64,000 nucleotides of DNA, taken from the NCBI GenBank assembly GCA_001189075.1, contig LFCN01000006.1, positions 524,866 to 588,865 of the forward strand, written 5' to 3'. The position numbers and the translations under genes were made by a program. Shown here one piece after another: positions 7,331-61,000 of the stretch. Origin of the DNA: Parcubacteria bacterium C7867-004. Its GTDB lineage: Bacteria > Patescibacteriota > Minisyncoccia > Phycocordibacterales > Phycocordibacteraceae. Positions within the stretch are counted from its first letter, which is position 1, and each line of letters starts with the position of its first letter. Under the pieces are notes generated by a model that was not told where the DNA came from, searched no databases, and saw only the letters and a list, made by a program, of their open reading frames with translations.

Positions 7331-7639
7331 CTACGCGGCCATTGCCGCCTGTTCGTCAGTCACCCAGCCATATTCGAGCATGTGCTGGATGTGTTCGGAA
7401 GGAGCATGGATGAGGCCCGTGTACGGCTCTCCCTTGCGCGCCGGCTCCTCGACGGTCACGAAGTAGGTGCGGTGCGGAATCCCGTGCCCGCAGAGTTCGA
7501 GTTTTCCGCCCGTGGTCGGCGAATTCACCTCCACCGTCTTCCACGCTATTGTCGGCAACTGCTCGAGATTAGGGCCCGGTTCCGGATCCCGCACTTCGAT
7601 TCGAATGGAAACTTTCCCAACGATCTGGACATCCTGCAT
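7331..7639 (-). CDS. hypothetical protein (about 102 aa)
   Basis: ORF 7331..7645. Probable true start MQDVQIV with AAGGAG Shine-Dalgarno 8 nt upstream (ORF-track M is a TTG). Confidence 0.45.
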   Translation of the reverse strand: MQDVQIVGKVSIRIEVRDPEPGPNLEQLPTIAWKTVEVNSPTTGGKLELCGHGIPHRTYFVTVEEPARKGEPYTGLIHAPSEHIQHMLEYGWVTDEQAAMAA

Positions 7640-7726
7640 ATCCAAACTCCTTTGCCTATGCAGTTAGGGATACCGTACCACCCGGTACCCGTAAACGACA
7701 AGACCCGCTTCCGCGGGTCTTGTTCG

Positions 7727-8062
7727 TTACTTCGAGATCGAATCGATCTTCACCTTGATCTCCGGCTGGCGGTGACCACGACGCTTGAGGTAGCGACTCT
7801 TCGCCTTGTACTTAACGACGTCGATCTTCTTTGCGCGGCCGACGATCTGAACGGTTCCGGTAACGGTCTTGCCCTCGAGCATCGGGGTGCCGACCGTAGC
7901 GGTCTTGCCGTCGTCGGTCATAAGCACCTCATCGAAGGTGATGGTGTCACCCTTCTTGAGCGGTACGGTATTGATACCGCGACCGATCTTCTCAATGGTA
8001 ACCATGGCTCCTGGGGAGACCACGTACTGCTTTCCGCCCGTCTTTATCACTGCGAGTTCCAT
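7727..8062 (-). CDS. rplU: 50S ribosomal protein L21
   Basis: MELAVIKTGGKQYVVSPG...KIDVVKYKAKSRYLKRRGHRQ is the L21 signature. Confidence 0.9.
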   Translation of the reverse strand: MELAVIKTGGKQYVVSPGAMVTIEKIGRGINTVPLKKGDTITFDEVLMTDDGKTATVGTPMLEGKTVTGTVQIVGRAKKIDVVKYKAKSRYLKRRGHRQPEIKVKIDSISK

Positions 8063-8159
8063 AATAGGCCTATATTAAAGGGTTTCGGCTAAAAAGCAAG
8101 CGCCCGGCAAGGCCTGGGAGGCAATGAAAAGGCCGTCCGGTTCTTCGGGCGGTCTCTAT

Positions 8160-8441
8160 TCAAAGGTATACAGGGCAGGCACTCCCCAGTGGCCTGGCCA
8201 AGTATTTCCTGTTGTGGATGATGCATCTGTCCGGGCCCCGTTTTACAAGACCCTCTGCGGCCAGTATGCGAACAACAGATTGATCTGCCTCCACATACAG
8301 TGACTGCTGGGATGAGTACTCGAACCAGAGGTAGAGCATTGCACCCAGACACATAAGAGCGATTACCAGGGTAACCCAGATCATCGGCACCTTAGCCGGA
8401 AGCGGTTCATACCTCACGACGCCCTCCCTACTATGCAGCAC
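8160..8441 (-). CDS. small membrane protein, hypothetical
   Basis: ORF track; one strong TM helix (MIWVTLVIALMCLGAMLYLWF); alternative overlapping ORF 8089..8352 makes the call uncertain. Confidence 0.3.
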   Translation of the reverse strand: MLHSREGVVRYEPLPAKVPMIWVTLVIALMCLGAMLYLWFEYSSQQSLYVEADQSVVRILAAEGLVKRGPDRCIIHNRKYLARPLGSACPVYL

Positions 8442-8472
8442 TCAACAGCGAGCACCCATAAAAAGTATACTC

Positions 8473-22380: not shown

Positions 22381-22409
22381 TTGACATGCTCTCTGTACGG
22401 AGCTATCCT
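22381..22409 (+). promoter_or_regulatory. sigma70-like promoter (TTGACA-17-TATCCT) preceding a roughly 200 nt structured leader
   Basis: Hexamers and spacer read directly; the leader contains perfect palindromes CCCTCGAGGG, GGGCCC and CCTGCAGCTGCAGG. Confidence 0.35.
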
Positions 22410-22617
22410 CGGGTGACATGGCACGAGCAACAGTGAGCTTCTGGAGCTATTGGTTTACGCAGCCCCTCGAGGGCTCGTCACTGTTGTCGTCATAGAATCT
22501 CCATCACGACAGTAGAAACGGGCCCTTGAGGGGGCCCCTTTCTATTTGGCCTGCAGCTGCAGGACGCAAATTGAAACTACGCACATTCCAACCGACTAGA
22601 GATATGGGGAGTACACA

Positions 22618-44174: not shown

Positions 44175-45485
44175 ATGCCAAAGCCTGATGAAATCAATTT
44201 CAAGGTAGAGGGCGGACATCCCTTGTCCGGAACCGTTGTTACCAGCCGCTCCAAGAACGGCGCGGTTGCCCTTCTTGCTGCCTCTCTCCTTAACAAAGGT
44301 ACGACCACTCTCAAGCGCGTCCCGAAGATCGAAGAGGTCCACCGCCTCATCGAAGTACTGCGCTCCATCGGTGTGTCCGTCGAGTGGAACGACCGCGATG
44401 TCATCATCATCCCGCCCGAGACTATCTCGCTCGAGACTATCGACCGCGAGGCTGCAGTGCGCACCCGCAGCATTCTCATGTTCATCGGTCCCCTGCTCCA
44501 TCATTTCCCCTCCTTCGATATTCCGCAGTCCGGCGGTTGCGACTTCGGCCGCCGCTCAGTTCGTCCGCACCTCTGGGCACTCGAGCGATTCGGCGTCGCG
44601 ATTGACACGCAGACCGATAAGTTCCAGATCTCGCATGACGGACTCGCGCCTGCGGAAGTTGTGCTCTATGAGTCGAGCGATACCGCAACCATCAATTCCC
44701 TCTTCGCGGCCGCAGGAATCGAAGGCACGAGTGTGATCAAGTACGCCTCCGCCAACTACCAGGTGCAGGAAGTCTGCGGCTATCTGCAGGCGCTGGGCAT
44801 AGATATCAAGGGACTCGGTACGACAACACTCACCGTTACCGGAAACACCGATATTCGAACCGACATCTCCTACGCGGTAGCAGAAGACCCGACTGACGCC
44901 ATGTTCTTCATAGCGCTGGCTGCGACCACCAACTCCTCACTCACGATACGCAACGTCCCTATCGAGTTCCTCGAGGTTGAGCTCGCGGTACTTGAGAAGA
45001 TGGGCCTTACGTTCAACGTCTCGGACTCAGGCGTCTCTGAGAATGGCATCACGAAGCTTGCCGATGTAAGTATCGAACCCTCCACACTTACCGCCTTCCC
45101 CGAGCGCATCCATCCGCGCCCGTACCCAGGTCTCAATATCGATAACCTGCCCTTCTTCGCGGTTATCGCTACCCAAGCTGAAGGCGACACGCTCATTCAT
45201 GATTGGGTCTACGAGAAGCGCGCCATCTATTACACTGAGCTCGATCGTCTCGGCGCCGAAACACTCCTCCTTGATCCGCATCGCATCCAGATAAGCGGTC
45301 CAAAGAAGCTCCGTGGCGCCGATATCATCGCTCCTCCGGCACTCCGCCCGGCGACCATCCTCCTCATTGCCATGCTCGCTGCACGCGGGAAGTCCATGCT
45401 GCGCAATGTCTACATCGTGAACCGCGGCTACGAAGACCTCGCAACCCGCCTCCAAGCAATCGGGGCAAAGGTCGAGCAGGTCTAG
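44175..45485 (+). CDS. murA: UDP-N-acetylglucosamine 1-carboxyvinyltransferase
   Basis: INFKVEGGHPLSGTVVTSRSKNGAVALLAASLL (EPSP-synthase-fold N-terminus typical of MurA) and full-length MurA architecture; start at ATG 44175 within ORF 43878..45485. Confidence 0.9.
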   Translation: MPKPDEINFKVEGGHPLSGTVVTSRSKNGAVALLAASLLNKGTTTLKRVPKIEEVHRLIEVLRSIGVSVEWNDRDVIIIPPETISLETIDREAAVRTRSILMFIGPLLHHFPSFDIPQSGGCDFGRRSVRPHLWALERFGVAIDTQTDKFQISHDGLAPAEVVLYESSDTATINSLFAAAGIEGTSVIKYASANYQVQEVCGYLQALGIDIKGLGTTTLTVTGNTDIRTDISYAVAEDPTDAMFFIALAATTNSSLTIRNVPIEFLEVELAVLEKMGLTFNVSDSGVSENGITKLADVSIEPSTLTAFPERIHPRPYPGLNIDNLPFFAVIATQAEGDTLIHDWVYEKRAIYYTELDRLGAETLLLDPHRIQISGPKKLRGADIIAPPALRPATILLIAMLAARGKSMLRNVYIVNRGYEDLATRLQAIGAKVEQV

Positions 45486-45553
45486 AAGGTACGCGTTTGA
45501 GGCGGATTCCTTTCCGCCCCGCTCACCAAAGCTTTCTTTGCTACTATTAGCGT

Positions 45554-45844
45554 ATGAAGCGAATCGGCGACCTCATCCCTACGCCCGCTGCCGAAGAGCC
45601 CAAGTCCCGCAAGACGGAGCGTGGCGAGCTCATGCGCTTCTTTCAGCGCCATCTCAATCACGCCCGCAGTCAAGACGGGCTTCCTAAGCTCACCATGGGC
45701 CGCATCGGCAAGGAGCTCGAAGGCATCCCGACCGACGACCTCTATTACCTCAAGACCGTCTGTAGCCAGGCGAAGAACTTCAGCAAGAAGTTCTGGTGGG
45801 AGATCGATCCCAAGAAGCACGAGAAATCAGACCAGCCCTTTTAG
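45554..45844 (+). CDS. hypothetical small basic protein (96 aa)
   Basis: ORF track; no family recognised. Confidence 0.4.
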   Translation: MKRIGDLIPTPAAEEPKSRKTERGELMRFFQRHLNHARSQDGLPKLTMGRIGKELEGIPTDDLYYLKTVCSQAKNFSKKFWWEIDPKKHEKSDQPF

Positions 45845-45884
45845 GTCATTGACGATTATGCGTAATGCGACTATACAGATACCT

Positions 45885-46464
45885 ACGCGACTCGCTTCCG
45901 CCACCTGAGTCGCGCGCGCGGGACGGTGATCATCCCGGTCATGGGCTTAAGTGTCCCCTCCCACTTACCCCGCCCGTCCCGCGTTCTTTTCCTTTCGAGC
46001 ATCGGTACTCCCGGTGCTTTTCTTTTTGCATAGCGACTATTGACAGAAGATGAGGCTGGGATGAATATGCGAATGCCACGTCGACCGGAAGTTCTACAGG
46101 CCCCGGAAGATTGGCATGGGCGCGTTCGAGACCTGAACTCCCTCGATCGCGATAGAGCGTCTCGCGAACACACACTCGCGACATCGCTGGTTCAGGAGGG
46201 GGTCTCCTGAACCACGTGCCGCCAGCTCGACTCAGCTCCGATCCCTTGGCCGGGCTGCGTGGGCAAGGAGCCAATCGTGCTGGCGGCACCCCCGCTCTTT
46301 TCAATTCGAACTCCCGAGGAGGCTCTCCAGCACCCAACGCTCCTCGGCGGGCGTCACCTCTTAGTGAATACCATCAGACTTTCCCCGAGTCTGCCTGGTT
46401 CACCCAAAGAGGTGACGCCCACTCTCATCCGACCGGACCCTTGTGGCCCGGTCTTTTTCTTTTG
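45885..46464 (+). ncRNA. candidate structured non-coding RNA locus (class unknown): promoter 1 (45849-45877) -> about 110 nt hairpin RNA with two tandem terminators; promoter 2 (46040-46068) -> about 380 nt element with 10-12 bp perfect stems ending in a terminator at 46431-46464
   Basis: TTGACG-17-TATACA and TTGACA-17-GAATAT hexamers. Stems CGCGGGACGG/CCGTCCCGCG, AGCAUCGG/CCGGUGCU, GGTTCAGGAG/CTCCTGAACC, GTGCCGCCAGC/GCTGGCGGCAC, GGCGTCACCTCT/AGAGGTGACGCC. T-runs after three hairpins. No plausible ORF on either strand (only junk-like antisense ORFs). Confidence 0.3.
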
Positions 46465-46477
46465 CTATAGTTCTTGC

Positions 46478-47008
46478 ATGGTTTCAATTGTCCAAGACGG
46501 CGACCCGGTCCTCCGCAAGAAGGCGGTGGAGGTCGAGGAATCGCTATTCGCAAGCGATGAGCTGGCGCAGATACTGACTGACATGGAAGAAGCCCTTGAT
46601 CGGGAGCCTGACGGCGTCGCGCTGGCCGCTCCTCAGATAGGCATCCCGCTCCGGATATTCATCGCCCGCTACGACCGCCTCCTCCCAACTCCTCCTGAAG
46701 GCGAACCGGCTCCACTCAAAGAGACCGGTATATTCATCAACCCGACCTTCGTACGCTCGTCCCAGCGACGCATCGAGATGGACGAGGGCTGCCTTTCCGT
46801 CCGTAGCGTCTACGGAAAGACCAAGCGCCATGAGCGCGCTACCGTGCGTGCACGCGAATTCGATGGCACCCCGTTCGAGCGCGGTGGCGGTGGCATACTC
46901 GCACAGATCTTCCAGCACGAGATAGATCATCTCGACGGCATCCTCTTCATCGATCACGCCACCGACCTGGTTGAAGCGCAGCGGAACCCAGAACCCGAAG
47001 ATGCATAA
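46478..47008 (+). CDS. def: peptide deformylase
   Basis: GVALAAPQIGIPLRIFI, EGCLS, QHEIDHLDG motifs; start at ATG 46478 (MVSIVQDGD) inside ORF 46259..47008. Confidence 0.9.
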   Translation: MVSIVQDGDPVLRKKAVEVEESLFASDELAQILTDMEEALDREPDGVALAAPQIGIPLRIFIARYDRLLPTPPEGEPAPLKETGIFINPTFVRSSQRRIEMDEGCLSVRSVYGKTKRHERATVRAREFDGTPFERGGGGILAQIFQHEIDHLDGILFIDHATDLVEAQRNPEPEDA

Positions 47009-48583: not shown

Positions 48584-48658
48584 TCACATTCCGCGGTAGC
48601 TCAGTGGTAGAGCGGTCGACTGTTAATCGATTGGTCGCAGGTTCGAATCCTGCCCGCG
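48584..48658 (+). tRNA. tRNA-Asn (anticodon GUU), CCA encoded
   Basis: TCCGCGG/CCGCGGA acceptor, GCTCAGTGGTAGAGC D-arm, anticodon loop CTGTTAA, GGTTCGAATCC T-arm, GCCA 3' end; terminator hairpin GCTAG..CTAGC+TTTTTT follows at about 48690-48715. Confidence 0.85.
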
Positions 48659-50151
48659 GAGCCAGAAGAGACATCAGCAAAATCAAGGACCAAATTAAAC
48701 GGAGAAGCTAGTGTAAAATCTAGCTTTTTTCCGTTTACAGTCGGGTTCTGAAGTATGGAACTCAAAAAGGCTCTTTGGTTAGCCGGTTCAGAACTATTCT
48801 CAAAAATAGACTTTGCCCTGCGAGCTACAGATATGACCGTAGCAACAGTAGTTTGGTAGTCGTAATCTGCCTTGCGGTATTCGGACATTTCAATTTCCAG
48901 GGTTTGTATCTGGTCCTGATACTCTTGGTGCTTTTTGTCATAGATGTCCTTAGTAATACTCTGGTCCAGGTAGGCTTCAAGCAATCGGTCATCCTTTGCT
49001 TTAAGTGCGTCATAGTCGTTCCGCATCCGGTTTATCTGAGCCTTATGAAATGCGACTTCGGCTTCAGTGTTCTTCCGAAGCTCATCGACAAGCTGATTCT
49101 GAGTATTCTCAGTAATCGTTGCAAAGTGCTCTAGAACCTCGTATACGGGCTTGAGAAGGTCCTTTTCAGGTACATACACCCTTTTGCATACTCCCTTAGC
49201 ATTCGTGCAAGAATAGTAGATAAAGCGACCCTTCTTGATTTCAGCACTCATTGAACAGCCGCAGTTTTGGCACTTGAGCAAACCCTTGAATATGAAGTCC
49301 CGGGATAGTGCCTTGAAAGGGGTTTTCCTGCGTTTGAGGCGTACATCTTCACACTTATCAAAGAGCTCCCTATCAATCAGGCGCGGATACTTGTGCGCAT
49401 ACGGACCATACTTCTTTGAGACAGCAGTACCGCAGTAAAAACTATCCTTGAGCATATTTTCAATGCAACTCTTGGAGAGCTTGAAACCCTTGAGGCTTCG
49501 TAAGCCAAGTTCCGAAATCTTTACCCTGATAGTCTCTAGGGAGTAGTTTCCTGTAGCATAAAGCTCAAATACTTTCTGAACCAAGTGCGCACGTTCTGGG
49601 TCTATGATTATGTCTTTACGTAAGCGCTTTTCTTGGTCCAAGTGAATATTCAGGTAGCCTAAACGGACTGCTCCTGTCCACTCGCCGTTCCTGCGCTTTT
49701 GCTCAAAGGCACGTCTAACATTGTCGCCGATAGCGTCTGAGTAGTACTTAGCCAGTCCAAGACTCATACCAAACTGAAACTTCTCAACAGCAGACATCTG
49801 GCTATTAATAATCTGACCGTCCGAAATGAAATGAAGTTCAATCCTATCTGCTACAGCAAGCTCATAGAGCCTGGCCACTCTTTTATCAAAGACGCTTCTT
49901 GAGAGCCGGTCTACCTTGTCAAAGCAGACTGCAATCTTTTCCTTCTTAATCGTTGTCTCAACAAACTCTAACAACTTATCAAACTCATCCCGCTTATCCT
50001 TATATGCGCTTTCATCAAAGCTAAATGATTTGATGACGATGAAATCTCTCTTTTTGCAGTAGCTGTCTACACGCTCAATCTGAGCAGGCAGAGAATTTCC
50101 TGCCTCCTTTTGTTCCTCTGTTGATACTCGTGAGACATTTACCGCTTTCAT
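48601..50151 (-). CDS. large serine recombinase (integrase), resolvase-type catalytic domain + recombinase domain + zinc ribbon + coiled coil
   Basis: N-terminal VSRVSTEEQ (catalytic Ser), DRLSRS, zinc ribbon CQNCGCSM...YYSCTNAKGVC, C-terminal coiled coil; the last roughly 19 codons read antisense through tRNA-Asn. Confidence 0.85.
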   Translation of the reverse strand: MKAVNVSRVSTEEQKEAGNSLPAQIERVDSYCKKRDFIVIKSFSFDESAYKDKRDEFDKLLEFVETTIKKEKIAVCFDKVDRLSRSVFDKRVARLYELAVADRIELHFISDGQIINSQMSAVEKFQFGMSLGLAKYYSDAIGDNVRRAFEQKRRNGEWTGAVRLGYLNIHLDQEKRLRKDIIIDPERAHLVQKVFELYATGNYSLETIRVKISELGLRSLKGFKLSKSCIENMLKDSFYCGTAVSKKYGPYAHKYPRLIDRELFDKCEDVRLKRRKTPFKALSRDFIFKGLLKCQNCGCSMSAEIKKGRFIYYSCTNAKGVCKRVYVPEKDLLKPVYEVLEHFATITENTQNQLVDELRKNTEAEVAFHKAQINRMRNDYDALKAKDDRLLEAYLDQSITKDIYDKKHQEYQDQIQTLEIEMSEYRKADYDYQTTVATVISVARRAKSIFENSSEPANQRAFLSSILQNPTVNGKKLDFTLASPFNLVLDFADVSSGSAGRIRTCDQSINSRPLYH

Positions 50152-50154
50152 GGG

Positions 50155-52815
50155 CTATAGAATATTTTCCTTAAGAGCCCCATCAAAAGCTGTTTCTTCG
50201 CTATTGTTGTAGAACGGAAGACCCCACACAACATATTTCCTATCTTCCCAGAGTTGTTCAACTTTGTGCTCTTCGTTAAGGGATACTAGGAAATTCTGCT
50301 TCCAAGCATCTGTTTCTTTGAGATGACTGCCCTTAGGCTCAATGAATACTTGGTAGTGGATACTCTTTGGCTTTGCTTTTTGGTAAAGGAAAAGTACGAA
50401 GTCTGGTTCGAGTGCCCTTCCATCGTCAAAATTGTAAAGCTTAAAAAAGCGCTCATTCCTTACTAGGTATACCTCGTCATACTTCTCACGGAGTTGCGTG
50501 TAAATCTTATCGACATATTTAACAAGGTACTTCTCTTCAGAAGTTCCGAAACAATCATTAAACACGTACCAAGACTTGTTACTGAGGTCTAGATAGATAC
50601 TAGTCTCTTGAGCATTGTTGATTGACTTCCCAAACTCCTTATCTTCGCTCTCATTCTCTGCGAAAGTAAGGACCTTTTCAGAGATTTTATCCTTGACCAA
50701 ATAGGGTTTAAATTCCTTACTCCCCTTGTATTCAAGTTTATCGCCAGATACACCCCTTGAGATAAGCTCTAGGACCTGCAAAACCGTGTCTAAGACATCG
50801 TCAGGACTTAAATTGTCTAGCTGGCTAGGTAGCCCAGAAACAGTCATTTTCACGCTTCCTAGGTAGTTCTTATTAGTAATAAAGTCATCGAGACTTTCAA
50901 GATTTGGGAAGTAAGTCTTGAGGTTAGAGAAAGAGTAAAATTCCAGCTTATAAATTGCCTTCTTTATAACGGTGGCACTGAGGTCCTTGATAGCAAAATC
51001 CCTTTCCTTCTTCTCTACACCTTTTTTGCTTTGTTCATCAAAAATACCGCTCGAAAGGTTAAAGCCGGTCCGTAGAGAAACTTTATAGAGAGTATCTCGC
51101 ACTGAGGATGGCAACCCAAAAACATCCTCTCGCGTGTACTTTTCTTGCTCATTGAGGAAAAGAAAGCCTGATTTGTAGAACTTACTTTCTTTGAAGTCAT
51201 CTTTAATGGTGAGACTGCGCTTTACTGTTTTATCGGCAATGATTCCGCTCGTTACGAGCGCGGAAGTAAGCTCCTGAATATACTTTGGGTTGTAGGTGCT
51301 GTGATAGTAAAGCTCTTCACAAATTCTCATCTCATTCTCAACGTCATCATCAAATTTCCTCTTCGATGCGTCATCGGTTTCGCTTAGCTTGAACGGACAG
51401 TATCGTGCACCACGACCAATGAGCTGGGCCTCTCGGATTGTTGTTTCACCAGGTCTGTTATTTGCAGAATCACGCGTATCGTACAGACGAACAATATCAA
51501 AAAGGTTCAGAACGTCCCATCCCTCATTTAGCTTATCTACAGCAAAAACTGCTCGATACTCATTGTCAGGAGCTTCTAGAGTATTGATGGCTACCTGTTT
51601 TTCCTCGCTCTCTTCCTTGCTGTTAACTGAGATTGTTTTATCGGCAGAGAAATCTTCCTTAAGCTCAGATACTAGGTTTTCAAGCGTAATCTTGTTCGAG
51701 TCGAAATACTCAAACATTCTTACGAGAACCTCGTCCTTTGCGTTTGCCTTTATTTCTGCAAGCTTCTTTGTAGTAAGTCCTTGCACGCTCTTGATAAACT
51801 CCTCCTGAAAAGCTTTGCTATCTGCAATGGTTTTAGACTTGAAAAGAAGCACCGGTTTAATAACCTGCTTGTTCTTCTCAAAGAGTTTTCTACGGTACTG
51901 GCTAAGTAAAATGGCCTGTAGACCACGGTCAAGTAAATTCGCATCCGCTTGAAGTACCTTCACATCCTTTGAATAGCCGTCCATTCGGAATTGCTTGAGT
52001 GGGTAGTCAAAAACAAGCCTGTCAGCATACTTTCTTGCTATATGCGGGTTACTGAAATCTACCGTTGCTGTGAACTCTAAAAGAATATTCTCAGCACTTG
52101 CGTTAACAATTCTATTGACCGTGCTCTCCCAAGAGATAATCTCTTCGGCTTCTTCTCTAGAAACCGAACCGTTTATGGTGACCTCACCGAGCACTCCGGT
52201 TCTGAGACCTGCTCTTGTCTCAACGTTAATATGGTGTGCCTCATCAGATATGAGCACAATTTTCTTATCCTGAAAGTCGTCAAAGGTAAGAGAGTTCTCT
52301 TGAGGATTGTTCAGTCTAGTATGAAGGCCTTGGATAGTTGAGAACGAGATATTAATACAGTCATCATTTCCAGCCTGAAAGTTATTTACTTCCTTAAGGG
52401 AAACTTTCTTTCCCCTAAAGGCGACGCTGCTGTTGAATAAGTACTTTATTGATGCGTCATTAAAGAAGTTATCTCGTGTCTTATCAATGATGTTTGTGCT
52501 GTTCACAAAAAAAAGAAAGTTTCTATACCCTTTCTCGTAGAGATAGAGAATCAGTCCGGCCATAATGAGCGTCTTACCACTACCAGTAGCCATACGGAAA
52601 AGAAGCTGATGCTTCTCAGGCTTGCCATCAAAGTTCTCGTTTAAGTAGTTTAGAAAGTACTGGAAAGCTCTTTCTTGGTAAGGTCTTATAGCAAACTTCT
52701 GATTGAGGTTTGCCGTTATGAGGTCAGGCACTTGAGTGGCTTCTATGCCACGCTTGCCAAACTCTGATTCAAGTATTCTGTTGAGTGTTTTAATTTCGTC
52801 CATAGAACTTAGCAT
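50155..52815 (-). CDS. res: Type III restriction enzyme, Res subunit (SF2 helicase-like ATPase + nuclease)
   Basis: Helicase motif I MATGSGKTLIM, motif II LISDEAHHI (DEAH), 886 aa, directly downstream of the mod gene. Confidence 0.8.
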   Translation of the reverse strand: MLSSMDEIKTLNRILESEFGKRGIEATQVPDLITANLNQKFAIRPYQERAFQYFLNYLNENFDGKPEKHQLLFRMATGSGKTLIMAGLILYLYEKGYRNFLFFVNSTNIIDKTRDNFFNDASIKYLFNSSVAFRGKKVSLKEVNNFQAGNDDCINISFSTIQGLHTRLNNPQENSLTFDDFQDKKIVLISDEAHHINVETRAGLRTGVLGEVTINGSVSREEAEEIISWESTVNRIVNASAENILLEFTATVDFSNPHIARKYADRLVFDYPLKQFRMDGYSKDVKVLQADANLLDRGLQAILLSQYRRKLFEKNKQVIKPVLLFKSKTIADSKAFQEEFIKSVQGLTTKKLAEIKANAKDEVLVRMFEYFDSNKITLENLVSELKEDFSADKTISVNSKEESEEKQVAINTLEAPDNEYRAVFAVDKLNEGWDVLNLFDIVRLYDTRDSANNRPGETTIREAQLIGRGARYCPFKLSETDDASKRKFDDDVENEMRICEELYYHSTYNPKYIQELTSALVTSGIIADKTVKRSLTIKDDFKESKFYKSGFLFLNEQEKYTREDVFGLPSSVRDTLYKVSLRTGFNLSSGIFDEQSKKGVEKKERDFAIKDLSATVIKKAIYKLEFYSFSNLKTYFPNLESLDDFITNKNYLGSVKMTVSGLPSQLDNLSPDDVLDTVLQVLELISRGVSGDKLEYKGSKEFKPYLVKDKISEKVLTFAENESEDKEFGKSINNAQETSIYLDLSNKSWYVFNDCFGTSEEKYLVKYVDKIYTQLREKYDEVYLVRNERFFKLYNFDDGRALEPDFVLFLYQKAKPKSIHYQVFIEPKGSHLKETDAWKQNFLVSLNEEHKVEQLWEDRKYVVWGLPFYNNSEETAFDGALKENIL

Positions 52816-54661
52816 TCAAAGCAACGTCTTCTTTAGATATTGCATATGTTTTGTCTTCGATTTCTGAGTACGGCACATACAGCAGATTCTTATCCAAAAT
52901 GGAAATTAAGAATCTTTGCTGGTCCTCAAAAGAAAGGCTCTCGAAATCTTTCTTCGTAGCGTCAACATCCTGAGGTTTTACTTTGTAGCTCAGGAAGGCT
53001 GTCTTCTTCATTTCCTCCCAAATAGTCATGAGGCTTTTTTTGTTCTTTACATCCTGTATTTTGTCCACAAAAAGCTGATTCGCCTGGGCGAGCTCGGCAT
53101 ATATAAATGAACCGCCCCCTTTCCAGTTCACAGATTCTGATATTCCTCCCTGCTCACCGTCAACTGCTTTTTTAAGTCTCTCAACTAGAACACTATCAAC
53201 ATAATCCATTTGTTCTACAGTGATAAACTGTCGTCCCATCTTCAAAGCAGTAGAAGCAGTAGTGCCGGAGCCACCGAAGAAATCCAGCACTAGGTCATCC
53301 TTCTTCGTGGAAAGTTCAATGATTCTTTGAATGAATCCTTCTGGTTTAGGGCCATCAAAGACTTTTTCTTTAAATAATTCTTTCAAGTGGCGAGTAGCAT
53401 TTGTTGTTGTAGGCAAGTCAGACCATAAAGTCGTAGTAACCTCTCCTCGCTCCTGTGCTTCAGACCAAAATCTTTTCCTTTGAGGACCGGCTTCACCGGT
53501 AGTGCCAAAGACAATCCTTTTATCTTTTAGTAAATCTTCGAATACGCTTTTTTCATTCTTCCAACTGTTGCCTGGTAACGGAGTATAAACTTCTCCAGTT
53601 TTGGGATTCTTAATTGGATATAACTGATTGGGGCGGATACCCCCAACCTGAAATGGGTCAGCAACCCACTTACCTCTAGGGTCGTTATCTGGGTTATTAA
53701 ACTTATCTTCATTAGCTGGAATTCTAAAGGTCTCTCGGTTCTTCTTGAGCCATTCTTTGTTTGTTGAGTACACCAAAGTGTGTGTATGTGCGTCAGAAAT
53801 AAGTGCGGTATTAGTAACTGATTTTGTAGAATTCCAAATAACATCGGCTACAAAGTTTTTCCTGCCGAACACTTCATCACACAGCACTTTTAAATAATGA
53901 CCCTCATCATCACTAATGCTCATCCAAATTAATCCGGAGTCATTCTTAAGAAGTTGTTTTGCAACCTCCAATCTATTCCTCATAAACGTGAGCCAAGTAG
54001 AGTGGTTGAAATTGTCGTTGTAGAGAAAGTCATTGCTTTCATTATCTCTGTTATAAGGCGGGTCGATATAAATTAACTGGACAGACTCCTTGTATTTAGC
54101 AAGAAGAGTCTGTAAAGCTAATAAATTATTACCCTTGAGAATAAGGTTGTCCTTAAGTCCCACTTCCTTAGCAATAATTTCTTTCCCTTTTTCATATCTC
54201 TTAAACTTTGTGAGTGCTTTTGGTTTTAGAAGTTTATCAATTTCATCAGAAGCCAAGGTCTCATTCCAAAACACTTCACTCCTCTTCGCATCATCCTTAC
54301 TTTGACCACCTTCAAGTACACAATCCTTATAGGGGAAGGCGAGGACCACCTCCTCACTATCGGTTAGGTAGTGCTTGTCAGAAATTAGACCAATCTTATT
54401 CTTGTACTCTGTAAAACTGTCAGGAAGAAACTGTTTGTTGGAAACGTAGCTTTGGAATTTAACCTTGTCGAAAACAAGGAAATCATCAACCTGCTGAAAA
54501 AAGGTTTCTGAGAGATCTTTTGAAGAGCGAAGTAGCTTTAATAAGCCAGCATCTAACTGAAGTGCGAGCTCAATAATCTTATTCTTAGCAAGCTTTCCTT
54601 CTACAACGAGCCGGTCATCTTTTGAGAGTGCTTCCGTTAGCTTTTGATGGATGTTTTTCAT
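52790..54661 (-). CDS. mod: Type III restriction-modification system Mod subunit (N6-adenine DNA methyltransferase)
   Basis: IYIDPPYN (DPPY catalytic motif IV), FFGGSGTTASTA SAM-binding motif I in the beta-class order; 26-nt overlap with res. Confidence 0.85.
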   Translation of the reverse strand: MKNIHQKLTEALSKDDRLVVEGKLAKNKIIELALQLDAGLLKLLRSSKDLSETFFQQVDDFLVFDKVKFQSYVSNKQFLPDSFTEYKNKIGLISDKHYLTDSEEVVLAFPYKDCVLEGGQSKDDAKRSEVFWNETLASDEIDKLLKPKALTKFKRYEKGKEIIAKEVGLKDNLILKGNNLLALQTLLAKYKESVQLIYIDPPYNRDNESNDFLYNDNFNHSTWLTFMRNRLEVAKQLLKNDSGLIWMSISDDEGHYLKVLCDEVFGRKNFVADVIWNSTKSVTNTALISDAHTHTLVYSTNKEWLKKNRETFRIPANEDKFNNPDNDPRGKWVADPFQVGGIRPNQLYPIKNPKTGEVYTPLPGNSWKNEKSVFEDLLKDKRIVFGTTGEAGPQRKRFWSEAQERGEVTTTLWSDLPTTTNATRHLKELFKEKVFDGPKPEGFIQRIIELSTKKDDLVLDFFGGSGTTASTALKMGRQFITVEQMDYVDSVLVERLKKAVDGEQGGISESVNWKGGGSFIYAELAQANQLFVDKIQDVKNKKSLMTIWEEMKKTAFLSYKVKPQDVDATKKDFESLSFEDQQRFLISILDKNLLYVPYSEIEDKTYAISKEDVALNAKFYGRN

Positions 54662-54664
54662 AAA

Positions 54665-54862
54665 TTATTTCGTACTCGCCTTTTTAAGAAAATCATCAAA
54701 CTCATCCTTATCAATTCTGTACTCTCGGCCAATCTTATAAGCACTCAAACGACCAGCTTTTATATAGCGGTAAATGGTCATGATATTCACATCCAACAGA
54801 CTTGCGAGGTCTTCCGCCTTGTAAAACTGCTTTTCTTTAGCCATACCCACTAATTTACTCAA
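54665..54862 (-). CDS. excisionase/AlpA/MerR-like helix-turn-helix DNA-binding protein (65 aa)
   Basis: YKAEDLASLLDVNIMTIYRYIKAGRLSAYKIGREYRI is the Xis-family HTH pattern; immediately upstream of mod. Confidence 0.6.
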   Translation of the reverse strand: MSKLVGMAKEKQFYKAEDLASLLDVNIMTIYRYIKAGRLSAYKIGREYRIDKDEFDDFLKKASTK

Positions 54863-54896
54863 TAATTATACTTGACACTACTTTACACATCAATTC

Positions 54897-55811
54897 CTAC
54901 CCAGTGGACAAGCTTTTCTTGTACGGCTCGTACTCCTCTAGGCTCTTATCTATCTGGTTGACCCAGTCTCTGAGCTTGTTCTTGGTTATCAGAGTGCTTG
55001 CTTGTTGCATATCCTTAGCTATGCGATACCAGGTCCTATCATTCGACCTTTTCGAAAGAATGGTTCGCAACTGCCTCATCCCATTCTCGTCTCTAGCAAG
55101 CATGAACAAACCTAGTAGATATATGGCTTGCTTTGGTTTCAGATTTTTATCTGCTAAAAACAAGGTTCTCAACACATCCTTAATGCTTACAGATATTGAG
55201 AATAAGCCCAGATTCCTCTCTTTTATCAGCCTCTTCCAGTAATCGCTTACAACCCTCTTGCTCATCTCGGTACTGAAAATCTGTGTGAATGTAGGGTTCT
55301 TGTCATATCCCAAGTCTTCGAGCACTTTGTTCATCTTCTGCTTGTGGTTCAATCTGATTTCAAATCGTATGACTTCTTTTAGGTCCTTGCCTTTGGTCAG
55401 TTCCGTAAATAGGGTCCTGTGGTAGCACGTTTGGTCCTTATCAATCGCACGCTTCTTATCCTTACTCAAGTCAGCAATCTTGTCATAGATAACAAGTTGG
55501 TGTGAAGTGGTATGAGCATAAAGGCTCTGACCGTCATTCATAAATCTCGTCTTTGAAAAATCAAAGCTCTTTCTCAGGTTGACCTTGTTCATTTCTGAAA
55601 TCAAGTGGTTTGCTGTGTAGCCATCTTCCAGCCGGATGTTCTTAGAGAAGTGGACTGAACTTACTGATGCTTTCTCTAGTACTGGCTTTGAGACTATTAC
55701 ACCCATAGTCCTGAGTCTTTCTTGTAGAGTCGCAATTACCCTTGGAAAGTCCTTTTCCTCAAGCTCTTCAAGATTATTCAGGTATATCAGCTTGGGTGCA
55801 GAAAACTCCAA
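54897..55811 (-). CDS. hypothetical protein (304 aa), island cargo
   Basis: ORF track, AT-rich, Lys-rich; no family recognised from sequence. Confidence 0.5.
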   Translation of the reverse strand: MEFSAPKLIYLNNLEELEEKDFPRVIATLQERLRTMGVIVSKPVLEKASVSSVHFSKNIRLEDGYTANHLISEMNKVNLRKSFDFSKTRFMNDGQSLYAHTTSHQLVIYDKIADLSKDKKRAIDKDQTCYHRTLFTELTKGKDLKEVIRFEIRLNHKQKMNKVLEDLGYDKNPTFTQIFSTEMSKRVVSDYWKRLIKERNLGLFSISVSIKDVLRTLFLADKNLKPKQAIYLLGLFMLARDENGMRQLRTILSKRSNDRTWYRIAKDMQQASTLITKNKLRDWVNQIDKSLEEYEPYKKSLSTG

Positions 55812-56167
55812 ACGAACATTGGCTTCTTGTGAGTAATGGCGCTGATAACCAGTTAATCTAGGAAAGTAGTTTCCAGTCTCCTTCTCTGCCTTACTCGGAT
55901 TCCGGACATACTTTTCATACTGGTCTGTCTTTGAATACAGTTACCAGTTTGATACTCCTGAGAGGTAGGTCATTCTATCCTTTGGTATCAAGAGGCATAC
56001 AGTATCAATCATTTTTCGCTTTCTTTATCTGGTAAAGTTCAGGATTTTGCTTCTTGTCCTCTTGGATAAGCCAAACAAAAGCACTAACAAGCTTCCCTCT
56101 GTCTTCCAGAGTTAGGTTATTTACTTGAAAGCTCTGTTCAGGCCTCAATTTGGTTGCAATTACCTGC

Positions 56168-56212
56168 ATAAAAAAACCCGTAGGTTGTACCTACAGGCTA
56201 TCTTTTTCGGCT
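56168..56212. terminator. hairpin (CCGTAGGT..ACCTACAGG) flanked by an A-run and a T-run; probable bidirectional terminator inside the island
   Basis: AAAAAAACCCGTAGGTTGTACCTACAGGCTATCTTTTTC read directly. Confidence 0.45.
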
Positions 56213-56254
56213 AAGCCGGTATAAGAACTTTGTGAACTACGGAAAGTATCTGTA

Positions 56255-56998
56255 CTACAGTTCTTTTCGCTTTTTCTCCATCAGCGAGATTATTTTTCCG
56301 ATATGACCGTAATCGAGATGTTCTCCAAACTTATCGCTCACAAGTCCCATAATTTCTCGTCTTGGCAGGTCTTTGTTGTAGTAGATAAACTCGTTTCTTT
56401 CTTTGATTTTCGGCTTCTTTCTTTTCACAGAGCCTATCTTCAGTTCCTGTCTCTTATACTTCTCTTGAAGAGGTTTGATTACTTCAGTATATGTATGTTT
56501 TATGTGGTCAATGATGTCTCTCTCGCTAGCAAATGGACTTATCCCTAGGACCACAGGGTAAATATCCTTGTCATTAATTCTTGTTGAAAATATTTCTTCA
56601 TTCCTTAGTACAAATTTCTTATAGTCCCACACATTACAGAGAGCCACGTAGGGTTCAGCACTGAATTCGTCCGCAACGATATACTCAGTAAGCTCTGTAC
56701 TCCACATCAACGGGTCAAGGCCATATTCAAGCAGGAGTGTATACAGGTCTTCTTGAAAAAGCTTATTGCGTTCAAGTTCGTCCGTAAGCTTAGGAAACAA
56801 GTCCATAAAGTCGTCAGAACCCCTTATTCCCTGCTCCGAAAGTCCATACTTCTTTCGCAGAGAAATTATAGACGTCGAAAACTTCTCTGTGTTTAATACT
56901 TCTTCGAAATAGTTGAATAACTTCTTATAGCCACTTGTTTTTGACAAGGAATTTTGAATATCATCGGGGTCAGAGAGGCTATTGAAGTCCAGCTTCAT
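56255..56998 (-). CDS. hypothetical protein (247 aa), island cargo
   Basis: ORF track; no family recognised. Confidence 0.5.
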   Translation of the reverse strand: MKLDFNSLSDPDDIQNSLSKTSGYKKLFNYFEEVLNTEKFSTSIISLRKKYGLSEQGIRGSDDFMDLFPKLTDELERNKLFQEDLYTLLLEYGLDPLMWSTELTEYIVADEFSAEPYVALCNVWDYKKFVLRNEEIFSTRINDKDIYPVVLGISPFASERDIIDHIKHTYTEVIKPLQEKYKRQELKIGSVKRKKPKIKERNEFIYYNKDLPRREIMGLVSDKFGEHLDYGHIGKIISLMEKKRKEL

Positions 56999-57156
56999 TC
57001 CTTTACTCTAGCTGACAGTGGACTACAGTTCAATCAATGAGTAGAGCAGTTCGCTTTTATCAGCAAAGTTGCACTAGTAGGACAGGATTGGTCAGTTTGC
57101 GTAGGTAGATAGTCTGAAAGGACGGCCGGAAACCCTCTCTACAAGCGGCACCTGCC

Positions 57157-57492
57157 CTATTTACTGCGCCAATAGCCTTTTACATACGTCCCATTTGCTC
57201 GATAGTATCCATTCACCCAAACAGTCTTTGAGACGGCGGGCGTGACCTTAGGCCAGGTCTCCTTCGCTGCCGCGGGTGCTACAACTCTTTTGATCGTAAC
57301 TGGTGTCGCTTTAGGAGCAACCTTCACTGGACAGCCAGAGGTATATCCTAAATCTCCGCAGGTATAACTACCTGTATCTGACGGGCAAGAGTGCCAACGG
57401 TGACAGCCTGACTGGTGGGCAGATACCGATGAAGGCACGAGAGTGAAGGCCAGTGCTGCTAGCAATAGGAGTCCAGGAAGAAGGTTTTTCAT
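57157..57492 (-). CDS. small secreted protein with signal peptide, Cys-rich N-terminal segment and conserved-looking YxxNGTYVKGYWR tail
   Basis: MKNLLPGLLLLAALAFTLVPSSVSA signal peptide; CHRWHSCPSDTGSYTCGDLGYTSGC; C-terminal VNGYYRANGTYVKGYWRSK. Confidence 0.5.
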   Translation of the reverse strand: MKNLLPGLLLLAALAFTLVPSSVSAHQSGCHRWHSCPSDTGSYTCGDLGYTSGCPVKVAPKATPVTIKRVVAPAAAKETWPKVTPAVSKTVWVNGYYRANGTYVKGYWRSK

Positions 57493-57500
57493 AATGACCC

Positions 57501-58058
57501 TTAGAACTTCTCACCTTTCTCCTTGAGAATTTTTTCTACACTTGAGACGGTGTTCTTCGAAGCATCGTTTAACTCCAACTTACCATTTAGAAAACTCTCA
57601 TATTCTGCATCTAACACAATAGAAGGTTTTATTTGTTTAATGCGATTTAAGAAAGATTTAATTTTCTCGTCTGAGTAACTACCCTCTCTTATCGAGTTGT
57701 GGTAAAGCGTACCATCAGATCTTAAGATATATAGATTCATTCTAGATCCAAACCAAGGCAATACGTATTGAGAAAAACGATAGATATATTTTATGCTTAA
57801 TACATCTATTTTATCCTTACCGAAAGTTTTATAACCTGAATTTATCAGTGTACGCGCGTCTTGAATCTCAAGGTATGTGCTAAAGAACGTCCTTATATTT
57901 ACTAATAGGATCATTAGTAGCAGCAACAGGAAAAATATAGTCTGTCGATTTAGTTCATGGAAAAAGTCTTTGCTATATCCTTCAATAAGGAATACACCGA
58001 CTAGCAAAGCTGAAGTATATATTGGAACTAAATTCGATCTAAACAGCTCTTTCTTCAT
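57501..58058 (-). CDS. polytopic membrane protein, candidate immunity protein for the upstream Rhs C-terminal toxin
   Basis: AT-rich; two to three TM helices; start 5 nt after the Rhs stop codon. Its position directly downstream of the Rhs toxin-carrying C-terminus suggests an immunity role. Confidence 0.45.
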   Translation of the reverse strand: MKKELFRSNLVPIYTSALLVGVFLIEGYSKDFFHELNRQTIFFLLLLLMILLVNIRTFFSTYLEIQDARTLINSGYKTFGKDKIDVLSIKYIYRFSQYVLPWFGSRMNLYILRSDGTLYHNSIREGSYSDEKIKSFLNRIKQIKPSIVLDAEYESFLNGKLELNDASKNTVSSVEKILKEKGEKF

Positions 58059-58062
58059 AATT

Positions 58063-61000
58063 TTACCTAGCAAAGATTCTCAACCCAGTTGACACTGAAT
58101 AATTTATAAGATTCTCAGCAAATGCTGGCATGAATGAAGCCGATGATCTTCCCAATGAAGATTCAACACTTTGTCCTGCCATTTTTGCTCCTGCTGCACC
58201 AATTGCTGAAATGCCTGCCTGACCCGCACCAACGTTACCTGAATCTAACATGTTTTGGGCTGCTGCTGATGCGCCCGCATTAAATACTATTCTTCCTATA
58301 GTTGCGTTAACTGAAGCGGCTCCTGCTATCGCGTCTGCTGCGGCTGAAGTTCCATACTGACCAGCAGTACTCTTTGTGCCATTATAGGCATCCCCGGTTG
58401 CTCTCGATGCAGCTCCCACTGCTGCAGAAGCATAGGCCCCAGCCACTACAGCTTCCTGTGCGGTAGCAACAGCAGCTCCCACCAAGCCTGCAACTTGCAT
58501 AGTAGCTACAGGCAAACCAAAGCCAACTTTAAGACCTTGCGTCATCACATTTTGTTTATAGTTATTTGCCGAAACCGGAATATTTGGGTTACGAGGACCA
58601 CCAAGCGCATGAGACATTATTGAGGTGTTCCCCGTAGGGTCTTTTTTAGTAATAGGATTGTTCTCCGCATAGCTATAGCTATTTAAGCTCTGCGGACTCA
58701 TAAGTAACTGATTGTGATCGAGACTGGTAAGAGCCTGAACCTTATTCGGATCACCAAGTGCCAGGAAGCTAGGGTCTTGGGAAAGGAAACCACCGCGCCC
58801 CCCATCGTAGTATCTTGCATTTAGGTACGAGAGGTCGGACTCGTCATCATGCAGCTCCCCGATGTAGCCTCGCTTCTCCTCGAATGAGCCGGACTGGGCC
58901 CGCTCCCCTCCGTAAGGATAGTAGTCAGTTACTTCAGATGCGGCACCCGCATTATTTGATGCAACATTTGTGCTGCCCAAATGATCGGGGTGGATATACT
59001 GGATCGTACTGGTAGCTCCAGCTGTCTCTACGGTCGCAATAAGCTCTCCGCCTGCGTATATACGCTTTGATGTAGTCGTGCCGGTGGTGTCGTAGAGACG
59101 ATTCACATAGCGGGTTGTAGTGCCTGCTGCGACCTTCAGGACACGCTGATTCGTGTGGTCATACGCGTAGGTGGTAGTTGCTCCCCCGCTCTGGGATGCG
59201 GTCATTCGATTCCGGTAGTCCCAGGCGTAGTTCTTTGCCCCGTATGCGGTGAGATTGCCGTTCGTGTCGTAGGCGAGGCTTGTAGAGGCAATGGACGTAG
59301 CTGCGTGCGGATTGGTGTATCCCGTCTCGCCGTACGTATAGCTTCCCTGATCTGACTTGCTCGTTATGTTCCCGATAGGGCTATAGGCATACGTCTGCAA
59401 GTATGGGGTCGAGGACGCAGCGGTCGTCGATGCGGACGTAAGGCGGTTCAGGCCGTCATAGACGTAAGTAACCTGTCTCGCTGCCTGAGTGCCTGAGTAA
59501 TCCTTTATGGCAGTTATGTTACCTACATTGTCGTAGAAGTAGTACGTGTCTTGAACAATATCTGACGTGCTGAGCGCACCTGTGGAGAATGTAGCCGTTT
59601 CAACGCTCCATTCCCCCGCGAAGGTGTGAGTGTCCCAATACTTTATCCTCCAGTAATAGGTTGTTCCGGGAACGAGTGCCGGCCCCACATATGGCAGGAC
59701 CTCGGTCCTCATATTGTTCGGTGTAGAGCTCGCAAGAGGGGTCTTTCCACTATCCCAGTACGGGCTTGTGAAGCTCGAAGAAGTTGCTACTTGGATCTGG
59801 TAGTACAGAGCCAGGTCACCACTATCAATATCGTGATGTATTGCCGAGAATTCGGGAGTATTGTCGGTCAAGTTTGTCGGGTTCGTCTGAGCATTCGTCT
59901 CGAGCGATGTCGGAGGGCCCGGCGGTGCGTACTGCGAAATAGTGAAGGTAGCGTTGGAACTCCATGAGCCCGCAGAGTCAGCAGTATCCCAGAACTTTAC
60001 CCGCCAATAGTACGGCGTTGAGGAAGCGAGAGTAGAGCCCGAATAGGATATATCTGGCGTACGACTACCGACCGGGGTCGAGCTTGAGAGCGCTGTCTTT
60101 CCACTATCCCAGTACGGGCTTGTGAAGCTCGTCGAGGTGCTGACCTGTATCAGGTAGTTGAGCGCGACGTCGCCAGCGTCCGAGTCCCCATAAATTGCTG
60201 AGAACTCAGGGGTAGGGTCAGTGACATCGTTCGGATTGGTACGGCTTTCCGTCTGAAGCGAAGTCGGCTCGGTCGGTGCGAGGTTGTATATCACCACGAG
60301 GTTCGGATCCTGGCTGGTTCCCGTGGTTTCCGCAGATGCGAATACCACAGTGAGCTCAATGGCATCAGTCGTCCAGTTGTTATTGAAGTCGTTATAGGAA
60401 CGGAAGCCGAGTTTTGATACGCCTGTTGGTGTTATAGCAGCAAGTCCGGTGCTATTGAGCGACAGAGATTCATAGGTGTTGAGTGTATAGGTCCCATCGG
60501 TAGTACCGAATGACGTGCTTCCAACCTGGTCATAATCGCCGAGTACGAGGGCAGTATTCGAAGCCGGAGTGGCAGCAACTGCGTATATGCGCTTCTCAGA
60601 ACTTCCAGCAAGAACGTTCGTGATGTACATGTTAACCGTTGCCGCAGTCACGATCGCAGCGTCTGGTAACACTGACGTATCGAATAGAAGGAAGGCACGT
60701 GCGAGACCAACCTTACCATTTGATTTTTCCTCATCACGAGCGTAGAGGTGAGCGCTCAAATCGTCTCCGGCGTTAGAGGCACTCGCGTTTCGGGTCGTAG
60801 TCCAGTTGCTGCTGTCGTTCTTCTCCATCGAACCGTCGACCGAGGTGACTTCTGTATTCGGATCAGGATAGAAGGTAACGGAAGCAGCGAGCGCGTGCTT
60901 CGGCAGGAAGAAGCTCAGTATCATTTCGATGATGGTCGGCTTCTCTTCCTTGGCGGTTACCTCCTTCTGATACTCGTAGGAGGCCTTGGTAGTGATGCCG

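Follow-up and report, generated by a model that had tools for sequence, protein, structure and literature searches.

What lies in the 633 bp that separate a small open reading frame (ORF) from def in Parcubacteria bacterium C7867-004? The gap falls within a 64,000-nucleotide (nt) stretch of contig LFCN01000006.1 (positions 524,866 to 588,865, forward strand), hereafter the window, whose own numbering is used throughout; loci of other genomes are cited by number (L001 and so on). It extends from the stop codon of the small ORF (TAG, 45842-45844) to the def ATG (46478), i.e. over 45845-46477. An earlier note on this DNA, made from the letters alone, proposed that the region holds one or more new structured RNAs bounded by promoters and terminators, or else an elaborate cis-regulatory leader of def-fmt. 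We consider it reasonably probable that 45849-46464 (+ strand) encodes a previously undescribed, lineage-specific family of structured noncoding RNA (ncRNA), which would act in trans and would have been duplicated into two units in this genome. The family is confined to a subclade of the Paceibacteria (Parcubacteria) and, although new, belongs to an ordinary kind, the bacterial structured ncRNA gene. The idea of a new RNA thus gained ground, through the lack of an Rfam match and of a conserved small protein, synteny in ~25 species and helices that change in a compensatory manner.

A structured noncoding spacer at a conserved position

The order mreB(-) / murA(+) / 96-aa ORF(+) / spacer / def(+) / fmt(+) is kept in ~100 Paceibacteria loci, which were collected via def, via the small ORF, and via individual homologues. 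In ~25 species, with small ORFs that share ~65% identity or more with that of the window, the spacer measures 150-630 bp. These long spacers share one design: a promoter near the small-ORF stop, GC-rich hairpins on the + strand, and a final hairpin followed by UUUUCUUUUU that runs into the -10 element of def. Of the 26 distinct spacers of the RNA type, 22 carry the promoter pattern, TTGAC-N16-18-TAnnnT, no more than 20 nt from the small-ORF stop; matches to the TTGAC-type pattern in the window number 6, against 1.2 expected. The RNA also closes with an intrinsic terminator, which in relatives consists of a hairpin and UUUUCUUUUU directly before the def -10. The def-side spacer of the complete genome CP174360 (L001) has 57% GC, compared with 37-45% in its flanks, and folds with a z-score of -8.4.

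The spacer does not appear to encode a protein. Mechanically called ORFs reach 132 aa on both strands, with no credible Pfam match. Among the 26 distinct spacers, tblastx connects close pairs only, in every frame and on both strands, which indicates similarity of DNA rather than of a reading frame, and the spacer of the window has no tblastx match to any other. The earlier statement that some 630 bp lack a credible ORF therefore stands, and the conserved small protein that would have told against a noncoding locus was not found by Pfam or tblastx. Nor does it resemble a catalogued RNA. With the 4227 families of Rfam 15 at gathering thresholds, the entire 64 kb window yielded two tRNAs only, and a permissive scan of 45400-46700 (E <= 10) returned noise (E > 4). 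The spacers of relatives matched no family, in 20 loci scanned at gathering thresholds and in 17 scanned at E <= 1, and a full-text literature search retrieved no paper describing such an RNA.

The spacer is, however, far more structured than its composition predicts, as the earlier note had surmised from its long stems. Its minimum free energy is -269 kcal/mol, whereas dinucleotide shuffles give -211 +/- 7.8; the z-scores are -7.4 (+ strand) and -5.4 (- strand). The two units that we propose below fold at z = -5.9 (45884-46029) and z = -6.3 (46075-46464). In a scan of 242 segments of 200 nt, which used mononucleotide shuffles, the segment beginning at 46201 ranked second most structured (z = -5.0). 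All five long stems listed in the earlier note are present, at 45917-26 / 45974-83 (10 bp), 46188-98 / 46204-14 (11 bp), 46314-21 / 46340-47 (8 bp), 46216-30 / 46275-89 (15 nt at 93%), and 46349-73 / 46396-420 (25 nt at 80%).

Two helices that keep pairing while the sequence changes

The primary sequence of the spacer turns over rapidly. Searches by blastn and nhmmer against 80 def loci of genome representatives gave no match to it, pairwise MAFFT alignment with L001 and with L161 aligned the def promoter alone, and blastn among spacers connected a few terminators only. At the other extreme, contigs that carry an identical small protein have spacers that are ~99% identical; these are useless for covariation, but indicate that the RNA is stable within a species. 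Judged from the aligned sequences, two helices, H2 and H4, keep pairing through compensatory changes despite this turnover.

H2 (45916-45984, + strand) is a long hairpin delimited from a 10-species alignment, with a C-rich apical part and a base stem GCGCGGGACGG / CCGUCCCGCGU, which can also be written GCGCGRGRYCGG / CCGRYCYCGCGC, followed by YYYGCUCUUU. Full-length MAFFT alignment of the 5' domain aligned the 3' strand of H2 and this motif only; both were aligned unaided, H2 3' strand and 3' flank together (alignment A7). For the alignments of H2 and H4 themselves, strands were picked by eye, variable apical parts were removed, and the remainder was re-aligned. In the H2 alignment (A8, 10 species), 96.7% of cells are paired, compared with 31-47% when the partner strand is slid out of register. 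Both sides have changed in 8 of the 12 pairs, and none of 500 shuffles reaches the observed score. A covariance model of the H2 module, R1, matches the window at 45910-46009 (35.6 bits, E ~1e-6), its sole good match in 64 kb. Outside its seeds, R1 finds the L122 spacer (E = 0.002), with weaker matches inside the spacers of L115, L087, and L112, all on the + strand.

H4 (46216-46289, + strand; GUGCCGCCAGC / GCUGGCGGCAC) was identified by inverted-repeat search and resembles hairpins closed by GUGC...GCAC in nine other species of four subgroups. In its hand-picked alignment (A9, 10 species), 95.5% of cells are paired, compared with 27-52% after sliding, and 8 of the 11 pairs have changed on both sides. 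The corresponding covariance model, R2, scores 25.3 bits (E = 0.004), with one off-target match of similar score. The closely related pair L081 / L163 offers a further comparison: of the 84 pairs predicted, 10 have changed in a compensatory manner and none is broken. Within H2 and H4 together there are 14 G-U cells, which on the - strand become A-C mismatches; these, with the orientation of promoter and terminator, assign the RNA to the + strand.

The third recurrent element is single-stranded. In 11 distinct spacers, the motif [GA][CA]TCTT[TC] stands 3' of a GC-rich hairpin. As a genome-wide element the motif was rejected: in the 64 kb window, CCGCTCTTTY is not enriched (11 matches versus 12.6 expected). 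We likewise discarded a pairing of the motif with an upstream AGAGCG, as a pseudoknot or a closing helix; it occurs in the fold of the window, and is not conserved in L161 or L189.

Layout of the locus and a model for its products

Read from 5' to 3' on the + strand, the locus begins with the predicted promoter P1 (45849-45877), in which a -35 hexamer TTGACG (45849-45854) is separated by 17 nt from a -10 hexamer TATACA (45872-45877); its position would place the transcription start near 45884-45885. A short 5' hairpin with a C-rich loop, H1 (CGCGACTC / GAGTCGCG, 45886-45914), is supported by inverted-repeat search and folds, the latter predicting a short hairpin at the matching place in relatives. 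H2 comes next, and after it a C/U-rich tract, UCUUUUCCUUUCGA (45985-45998), in which the family motif YYYGCUCUUU recurs in degenerate form. The terminator-like element T1 (45997-46029), found by terminator scan, consists of the hairpin GAGCAUCGG-UACUC-CCGGUGCUU and the tail UUCUUUUUGC. A promoter-like sequence of uncertain status, P2 (TTGACA-17-GAATAT, 46040-46068), has a predicted start near 46075. It is followed by an H3-like hairpin in the predicted folds (46071-46120; outer stem AUGCCA / UGGCAU, inner CCGG / CCGG, internal loop GAAG), whose resemblance to H3 of L093, L184, and L187 in alignment A10 is a weak, by-eye match.

The perfect 11-bp hairpin TGGTTCAGGAG / CTCCTGAACCA (46188-46214), from the inverted-repeat search, has no counterpart that we recognized in relatives. 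Directly after H4 lies a second, single-stranded copy of the family motif, CCCCGCUCUUUUCAAUUCGA (46290-46309), located by motif search. Two hairpins seen in this genome only then follow, CCGAGGAG / CTCCTCGG (46314-46347) and the long GGGCGTCACCTCT... / ...AGAGGTGACGCCC (46349-46420), both by inverted-repeat search and fold. The locus closes with the predicted terminator T2, GACCGGACC-CUUGU-GGCCCGGUC with the tail UUUUUCUUUU (46431-46463; read from the sequence and the fold), which abuts the promoter and start of def (46463-46480).

The earlier note counted two good sigma-70 promoters and three terminators here. P1 is conserved in relatives, whereas P2 has a weak -10 and occurs in this genome only; both fail the strict rule of the promoter scan. 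As for terminators, the consensus rule lists only 45997-46019 in the spacer, that is T1; it misses T2 (46431-46463), whose stem holds an A-C mismatch, and the third (45917-45995) is hairpin H2 with its C/U-rich tract, which is not canonical.

Two direct repeats link the halves of the locus. D1 (46010-46033 versus 46447-46470, 79% identical) spans a terminator 3' arm, its U-tract, and GC(T)ATAG; D2 (45978-45998 versus 46289-46309, 81% identical) spans the end of a hairpin and the motif that follows. Together they point to a tandem duplication of a module that runs from hairpin and motif to terminator and promoter. We therefore propose the following model. In relatives, the RNA would be made from one autonomous transcription unit between the conserved 96-aa ORF and def, comprising, in order, a near-consensus sigma-70 promoter, H1, H2 with the single-stranded YYYGCUCUUU tract, H3 and H4, and an intrinsic terminator, the U-tract of which would be the T-run that precedes the extended -10 of a leaderless def-fmt mRNA. 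In C7867-004, part of this unit would have been duplicated in tandem, giving RNA 1 (~143 nt, P1 to T1), with H1, H2, and the motif, and RNA 2 (~389 nt, P2 to T2), with the H3-like hairpin, H4, the motif, and two extra hairpins; some transcripts may also run on from P1 to T2 (~580 nt). RNA 1 would thus be longer than the ~110 nt that the earlier note gave for its first product.

The near-consensus promoter, the compact independent unit, the conserved helices, and the conserved single-stranded C/U-rich tract all suggest a role in trans. The RNAs are most likely stable, abundant, and structured, and may contact a purine-rich site in another RNA, or a protein, through the C/U-rich segments that they expose, namely the CUCUUU tract and C-rich apical loops. 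A secondary effect in cis may be that the terminator shields the def promoter from upstream transcription.

Evidence against the interpretation, and alternatives

Several observations weigh against a conserved, trans-acting RNA encoded in two units. The promoters and transcript ends are predicted, as is the number of products, and the mechanism in trans is conjecture, as the data identify no target or partner. One specific idea for it, that C-rich loops act as anti-Shine-Dalgarno sequences, was rejected because CCUCC is not enriched: CCTCC occurs 23 times, versus 18.6 +/- 3.9 in shuffles (48 of 300 shuffles are as high). Even the nearest relative, L161, whose small ORF is 92% identical, is unalignable across the spacer save for the def promoter, and turnover so extreme is unusual for a strongly constrained RNA. 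Picking strands by eye and cutting out apical parts favors pairing, and so introduces a selection bias into the H2 and H4 alignments. Beyond its seeds, R1 has only one convincing match, L122, together with an off-target match in L102. R2 does not discriminate, with E of at least 0.004 even on its own seeds, which leaves the homology of H4 no more than suggestive; we rejected this model as evidence for homology, as it is too short and is over-penalized by loop insertions. In many more distant relatives with the same synteny the spacer is just 17-35 bp, and an element absent from so many of them must be dispensable or relocatable. Finally, P2, with its weak -10, is the sole internal TTGACA-type match among the 26 spacers and is found in this genome only, and T1 has no counterpart in the spacer of any relative.

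The last two points bear on the number of products. A possible alternative, clearly less probable than the reading above, is a single RNA of ~580 nt from P1 to T2; the T1 hairpin would then be structural, or a leaky terminator, and the likeness of P2 to a promoter would be a coincidence within a conserved linker. Such an RNA would be an end-to-end homologue of the H1-H2-motif-H3-H4-terminator RNAs of relatives. In L093, L184, L187, and L095, all these parts occur in that order behind one promoter, in one unit, with H2 and H4 120-151 nt apart; the window keeps the order, but here the distance is 232 nt, with T1 and P2 in between, and a second motif copy and two extra hairpins separate H4 from T2. 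The other 25 spacers have no equivalent of P2 or T1. The -10 of P2, GAATAT, agrees with the consensus at 3 of 6 positions, and P2 sits in a linker that reads GCACAGAAUCUGC in relatives; its TTGACAGAAG can be aligned with GCACAGAAUC, the linker found 3' of the motif in L188 and L189.

Against a single RNA stands the quality of both internal signals. T1 is a 9-bp hairpin followed by a U-tract with 9 U in 10 nt (UUUUCUUUUU), the same tail as that of the bona fide terminators of the lineage. With the GCATAG that follows, it is a 79% repeat of T2 and the def -10, from which it appears that a whole terminator-promoter module was duplicated. The -35 of P2 is perfect and, with the next two bases (TTGACAGA), recurs in L086 and L187, at their primary promoters. 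We consequently favor two transcripts (~143 and ~389 nt) somewhat over one of ~580 nt, based on these sequence features; the internal duplication speaks for the two products of the earlier note, but as P2 and T1 are not conserved, this model is plausible rather than secure. A separate candidate, an internal promoter in relatives formed by a -10-like TAYAAT in the H3 loop, was discarded, because 22-28 nt separate it from any -35-like hexamer.

It is unlikely that the region is a fast-evolving, non-functional spacer, made of terminator hairpins and duplicated modules that end transcription of murA and the small ORF and insulate def. The failure to align with the nearest relative, the range in length from 150 to 630 bp, the absence from many relatives, and the internal duplications would all fit such a spacer, and the motif does look like a degenerate U-tract behind a hairpin. 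The site is, moreover, an insertion hot-spot for different cargo: a few relatives carry other insertions between the small ORF and def, namely a GIY-YIG ORF (L125) and a hydrophobic peptide (L110, L111, L145). However, a region that serves termination has no need of a near-consensus promoter immediately after the small-ORF stop, such as 22 of 26 spacers possess, nor of four to eight hairpins, which go far beyond the requirements of termination. The helices of H2, of H4, and of the L081 / L163 pair are maintained via compensatory changes, and in the lower-GC genome L001 the equivalent spacer stands out from its flanks by its high GC content.

A cis-regulatory leader or attenuator of def-fmt, with transcription from P1 passing through a regulated T2 into def, was the second proposal of the earlier note, and we regard it as very unlikely. 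In its favor, the region immediately precedes def, in the same orientation, and contains several hairpin and U-tract elements that could serve as attenuators. Against it, def has a promoter of its own. In the window, the extended -10 TGC-TATAGT (46463-46471) is followed after 6 nt by the ATG (46478-46480), and TGnTAtAnT with 6 (sometimes 7) nt before the ATG recurs in ~80 loci, with spacers of 17 bp as with spacers of 600 bp, and whether or not the RNA is present. With an extended -10 placed 6 nt before the ATG, the def-fmt mRNA would be leaderless; the start was deduced from the position of the promoter. Leaderless transcription of def-fmt from its own extended -10 throughout the lineage is strongly supported by this arrangement, in agreement with the earlier note, which had placed a leaderless start at TATAGT.

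The normal def mRNA would thus have no 5' untranslated region (UTR) to regulate, with or without the RNA, and the structured region would not be one. T2 lies 14 nt from the ATG, with no Shine-Dalgarno sequence in between, and no riboswitch, T-box, or leader model of Rfam matched the window region or the relatives. We therefore rejected the leader: the def promoter is the same where the RNA is absent, and many spacers are only 17-35 bp long. A T-run is found just upstream of the TGn in def loci even where there is no hairpin, so that the terminator of the RNA seems to borrow the T-run of the promoter as its U-tract.

Least probable of all is a highly divergent housekeeping RNA, i.e. RNase P RNA, transfer-messenger RNA (tmRNA), signal recognition particle (SRP) RNA, or 6S RNA: the size of 250-600 nt and the strong promoter fit, Candidate Phyla Radiation (CPR) genomes often carry aberrant RNAs, and 6S, conserved mainly in shape, may escape sequence-based models, but nothing in Rfam 15 matches the window region or the relatives at the thresholds given above, ARAGORN is negative, the element is missing at this locus in many relatives and varies ~fourfold in length, and the predicted hairpins are independent, with no rod and central bubble. 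By class, the RNase P RNA models, including the strands of the P4 helix, found nothing in 45400-46700 (E <= 10), in L001, or in the 20 or 17 relatives. For tmRNA, ARAGORN reported two tRNAs only in the 64 kb window, and no Rfam tmRNA model matched. The SRP (4.5S) models had no match in the window or relatives, and the 6S models none in the window region or the 17 relatives. The earlier note, which had looked for the hallmarks of these four RNAs without success, is upheld. The predicted folds are strings of independent hairpins, unlike the 6S rod with its central bubble; a predicted shape is no proof, and a very aberrant 6S RNA is improbable rather than strictly disproved.

Comparison with known RNAs

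The closest parallel for the proposed RNA is with independently transcribed bacterial small RNA (sRNA) and structured ncRNA genes, such as the orphan RNAs found by comparative genomics. Like these, it has its own sigma-70-type promoter and intrinsic terminator, no ORF, a syntenic position, compensatory helices, and a GC content above that of a lower-GC host genome. It differs from them in matching none of the Rfam families, in being unusually long (up to ~580 nt), modular, and fast-changing, and in its restriction to a Paceibacteria subclade.

With RNA-polymerase-binding RNAs of the 6S / Ms1 type, it shares a strong promoter, a structured, noncoding product of a few hundred nt, and conservation of shape over sequence. 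In contrast to those, it matches no 6S model, is predicted to form separate hairpins and not a closed rod, and is not universal among close relatives.

The CcsR / cuckoo and RsaE-type sRNAs are built of tandem hairpin modules whose C-rich loops pair with Shine-Dalgarno sequences, and some are encoded downstream of a small-protein gene. Our locus is similar in lying directly downstream of a small conserved ORF, in its repeated hairpin modules, in having CCCC or CCUCC in many loops, and, in this genome, in the tandem duplication of a module. Unlike these sRNAs, it has a promoter of its own rather than arising by 3' UTR processing, and there is no sequence similarity. Moreover, CCUCC is unenriched, with 12 of its 23 sites mostly unpaired, and CCCC runs are mildly enriched (127 versus 101 expected; 5 of 300 shuffles are as high).

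Neighboring genes and other observations

The 96-aa ORF upstream of the RNA (45554-45844) belongs to a well conserved family of 682 homologues that is restricted to the Paceibacteria and has the invariant motifs TERGELM...DLYYL...FSKKFWWE. It has no match in Pfam, NCBIfam, or the PDB, and is found without the RNA in many genomes. In L001 (2081-3685; CP174360, UBA2103), murA and the small ORF lie in the opposite orientation to those of the window, and the RNA stays beside def, on the strand of def. The insertions in the small ORF-def spacer comprise a GIY-YIG-like ORF at L125 937-1238, and an ORF for a 31-aa hydrophobic peptide, with a Shine-Dalgarno sequence, at L110 / L111 3786-4073 and L145 3786-4353.

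Downstream of def, tRNA-Asn (48590-48664) is followed by a ~10 kb island of low GC (39-45%, versus ~58% elsewhere; window 48590-58500), which begins with a gene for a large serine recombinase (48601-50151, - strand) containing Resolvase, Recombinase, and Zn_ribbon_recom domains. The island has the look of a mobile element or prophage that integrated at the tRNA. In eight relatives, group I introns (RF00028, 61-74 bits) occur 2-3 kb downstream of def, at approximately the place where the window has its uninterrupted tRNA-Asn; these are at L001 6554-6827, L085 6492-6768, L088 6603-6879, L089 6909-7224, L091 6357-6591, L098 3487-3764, L123 6121-6432, and L137 6666-6986.

Elsewhere in the window, a second candidate small RNA lies at 22381-22550 (+ strand), where TTGACA-N17-TATCCT precedes ~135 nt rich in hairpins, with a terminator, GGGCCC...GGGGGCCCCUUUCUAUUU, after them; the z-score of its fold is -3.8, and no Rfam family matches it. 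Two adjacent 200-nt segments, which begin at 7601 and 8001, rank with the best-folding of the window (z = -5.4 and -4.4), and within 7601-8400, the stretch ~8093-8472 lacks a long ORF.

Implications for the Paceibacteria

To our knowledge, the ncRNAs of CPR bacteria are almost unexplored. A bolder interpretation, which we consider improbable, is that the RNA represents a new class, large and modular in build and specific to the CPR or the Paceibacteria, with a defined cellular partner, and that in C7867-004 it has been split into two working, separately transcribed pieces, a split comparable in spirit to two-piece tmRNA. If so, the role of such a large modular RNA might be tied to leaderless initiation, or to the regulation of the ribosome or RNA polymerase in reduced genomes.

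For the lineage-specific ncRNA family that we favor, the locus offers a concrete target for the mining of metatranscriptomes, with a promoter, a terminator, two covarying helices, and a single-stranded motif to look for. Of more general interest are the def-fmt mRNA that is predicted to be leaderless across the lineage, and an RNA gene whose terminator would share its T-run with the next promoter. Since these genomes are tiny and densely packed, a strongly promoted RNA gene of 0.25-0.6 kb that many species keep at one locus is likely to matter to its host.

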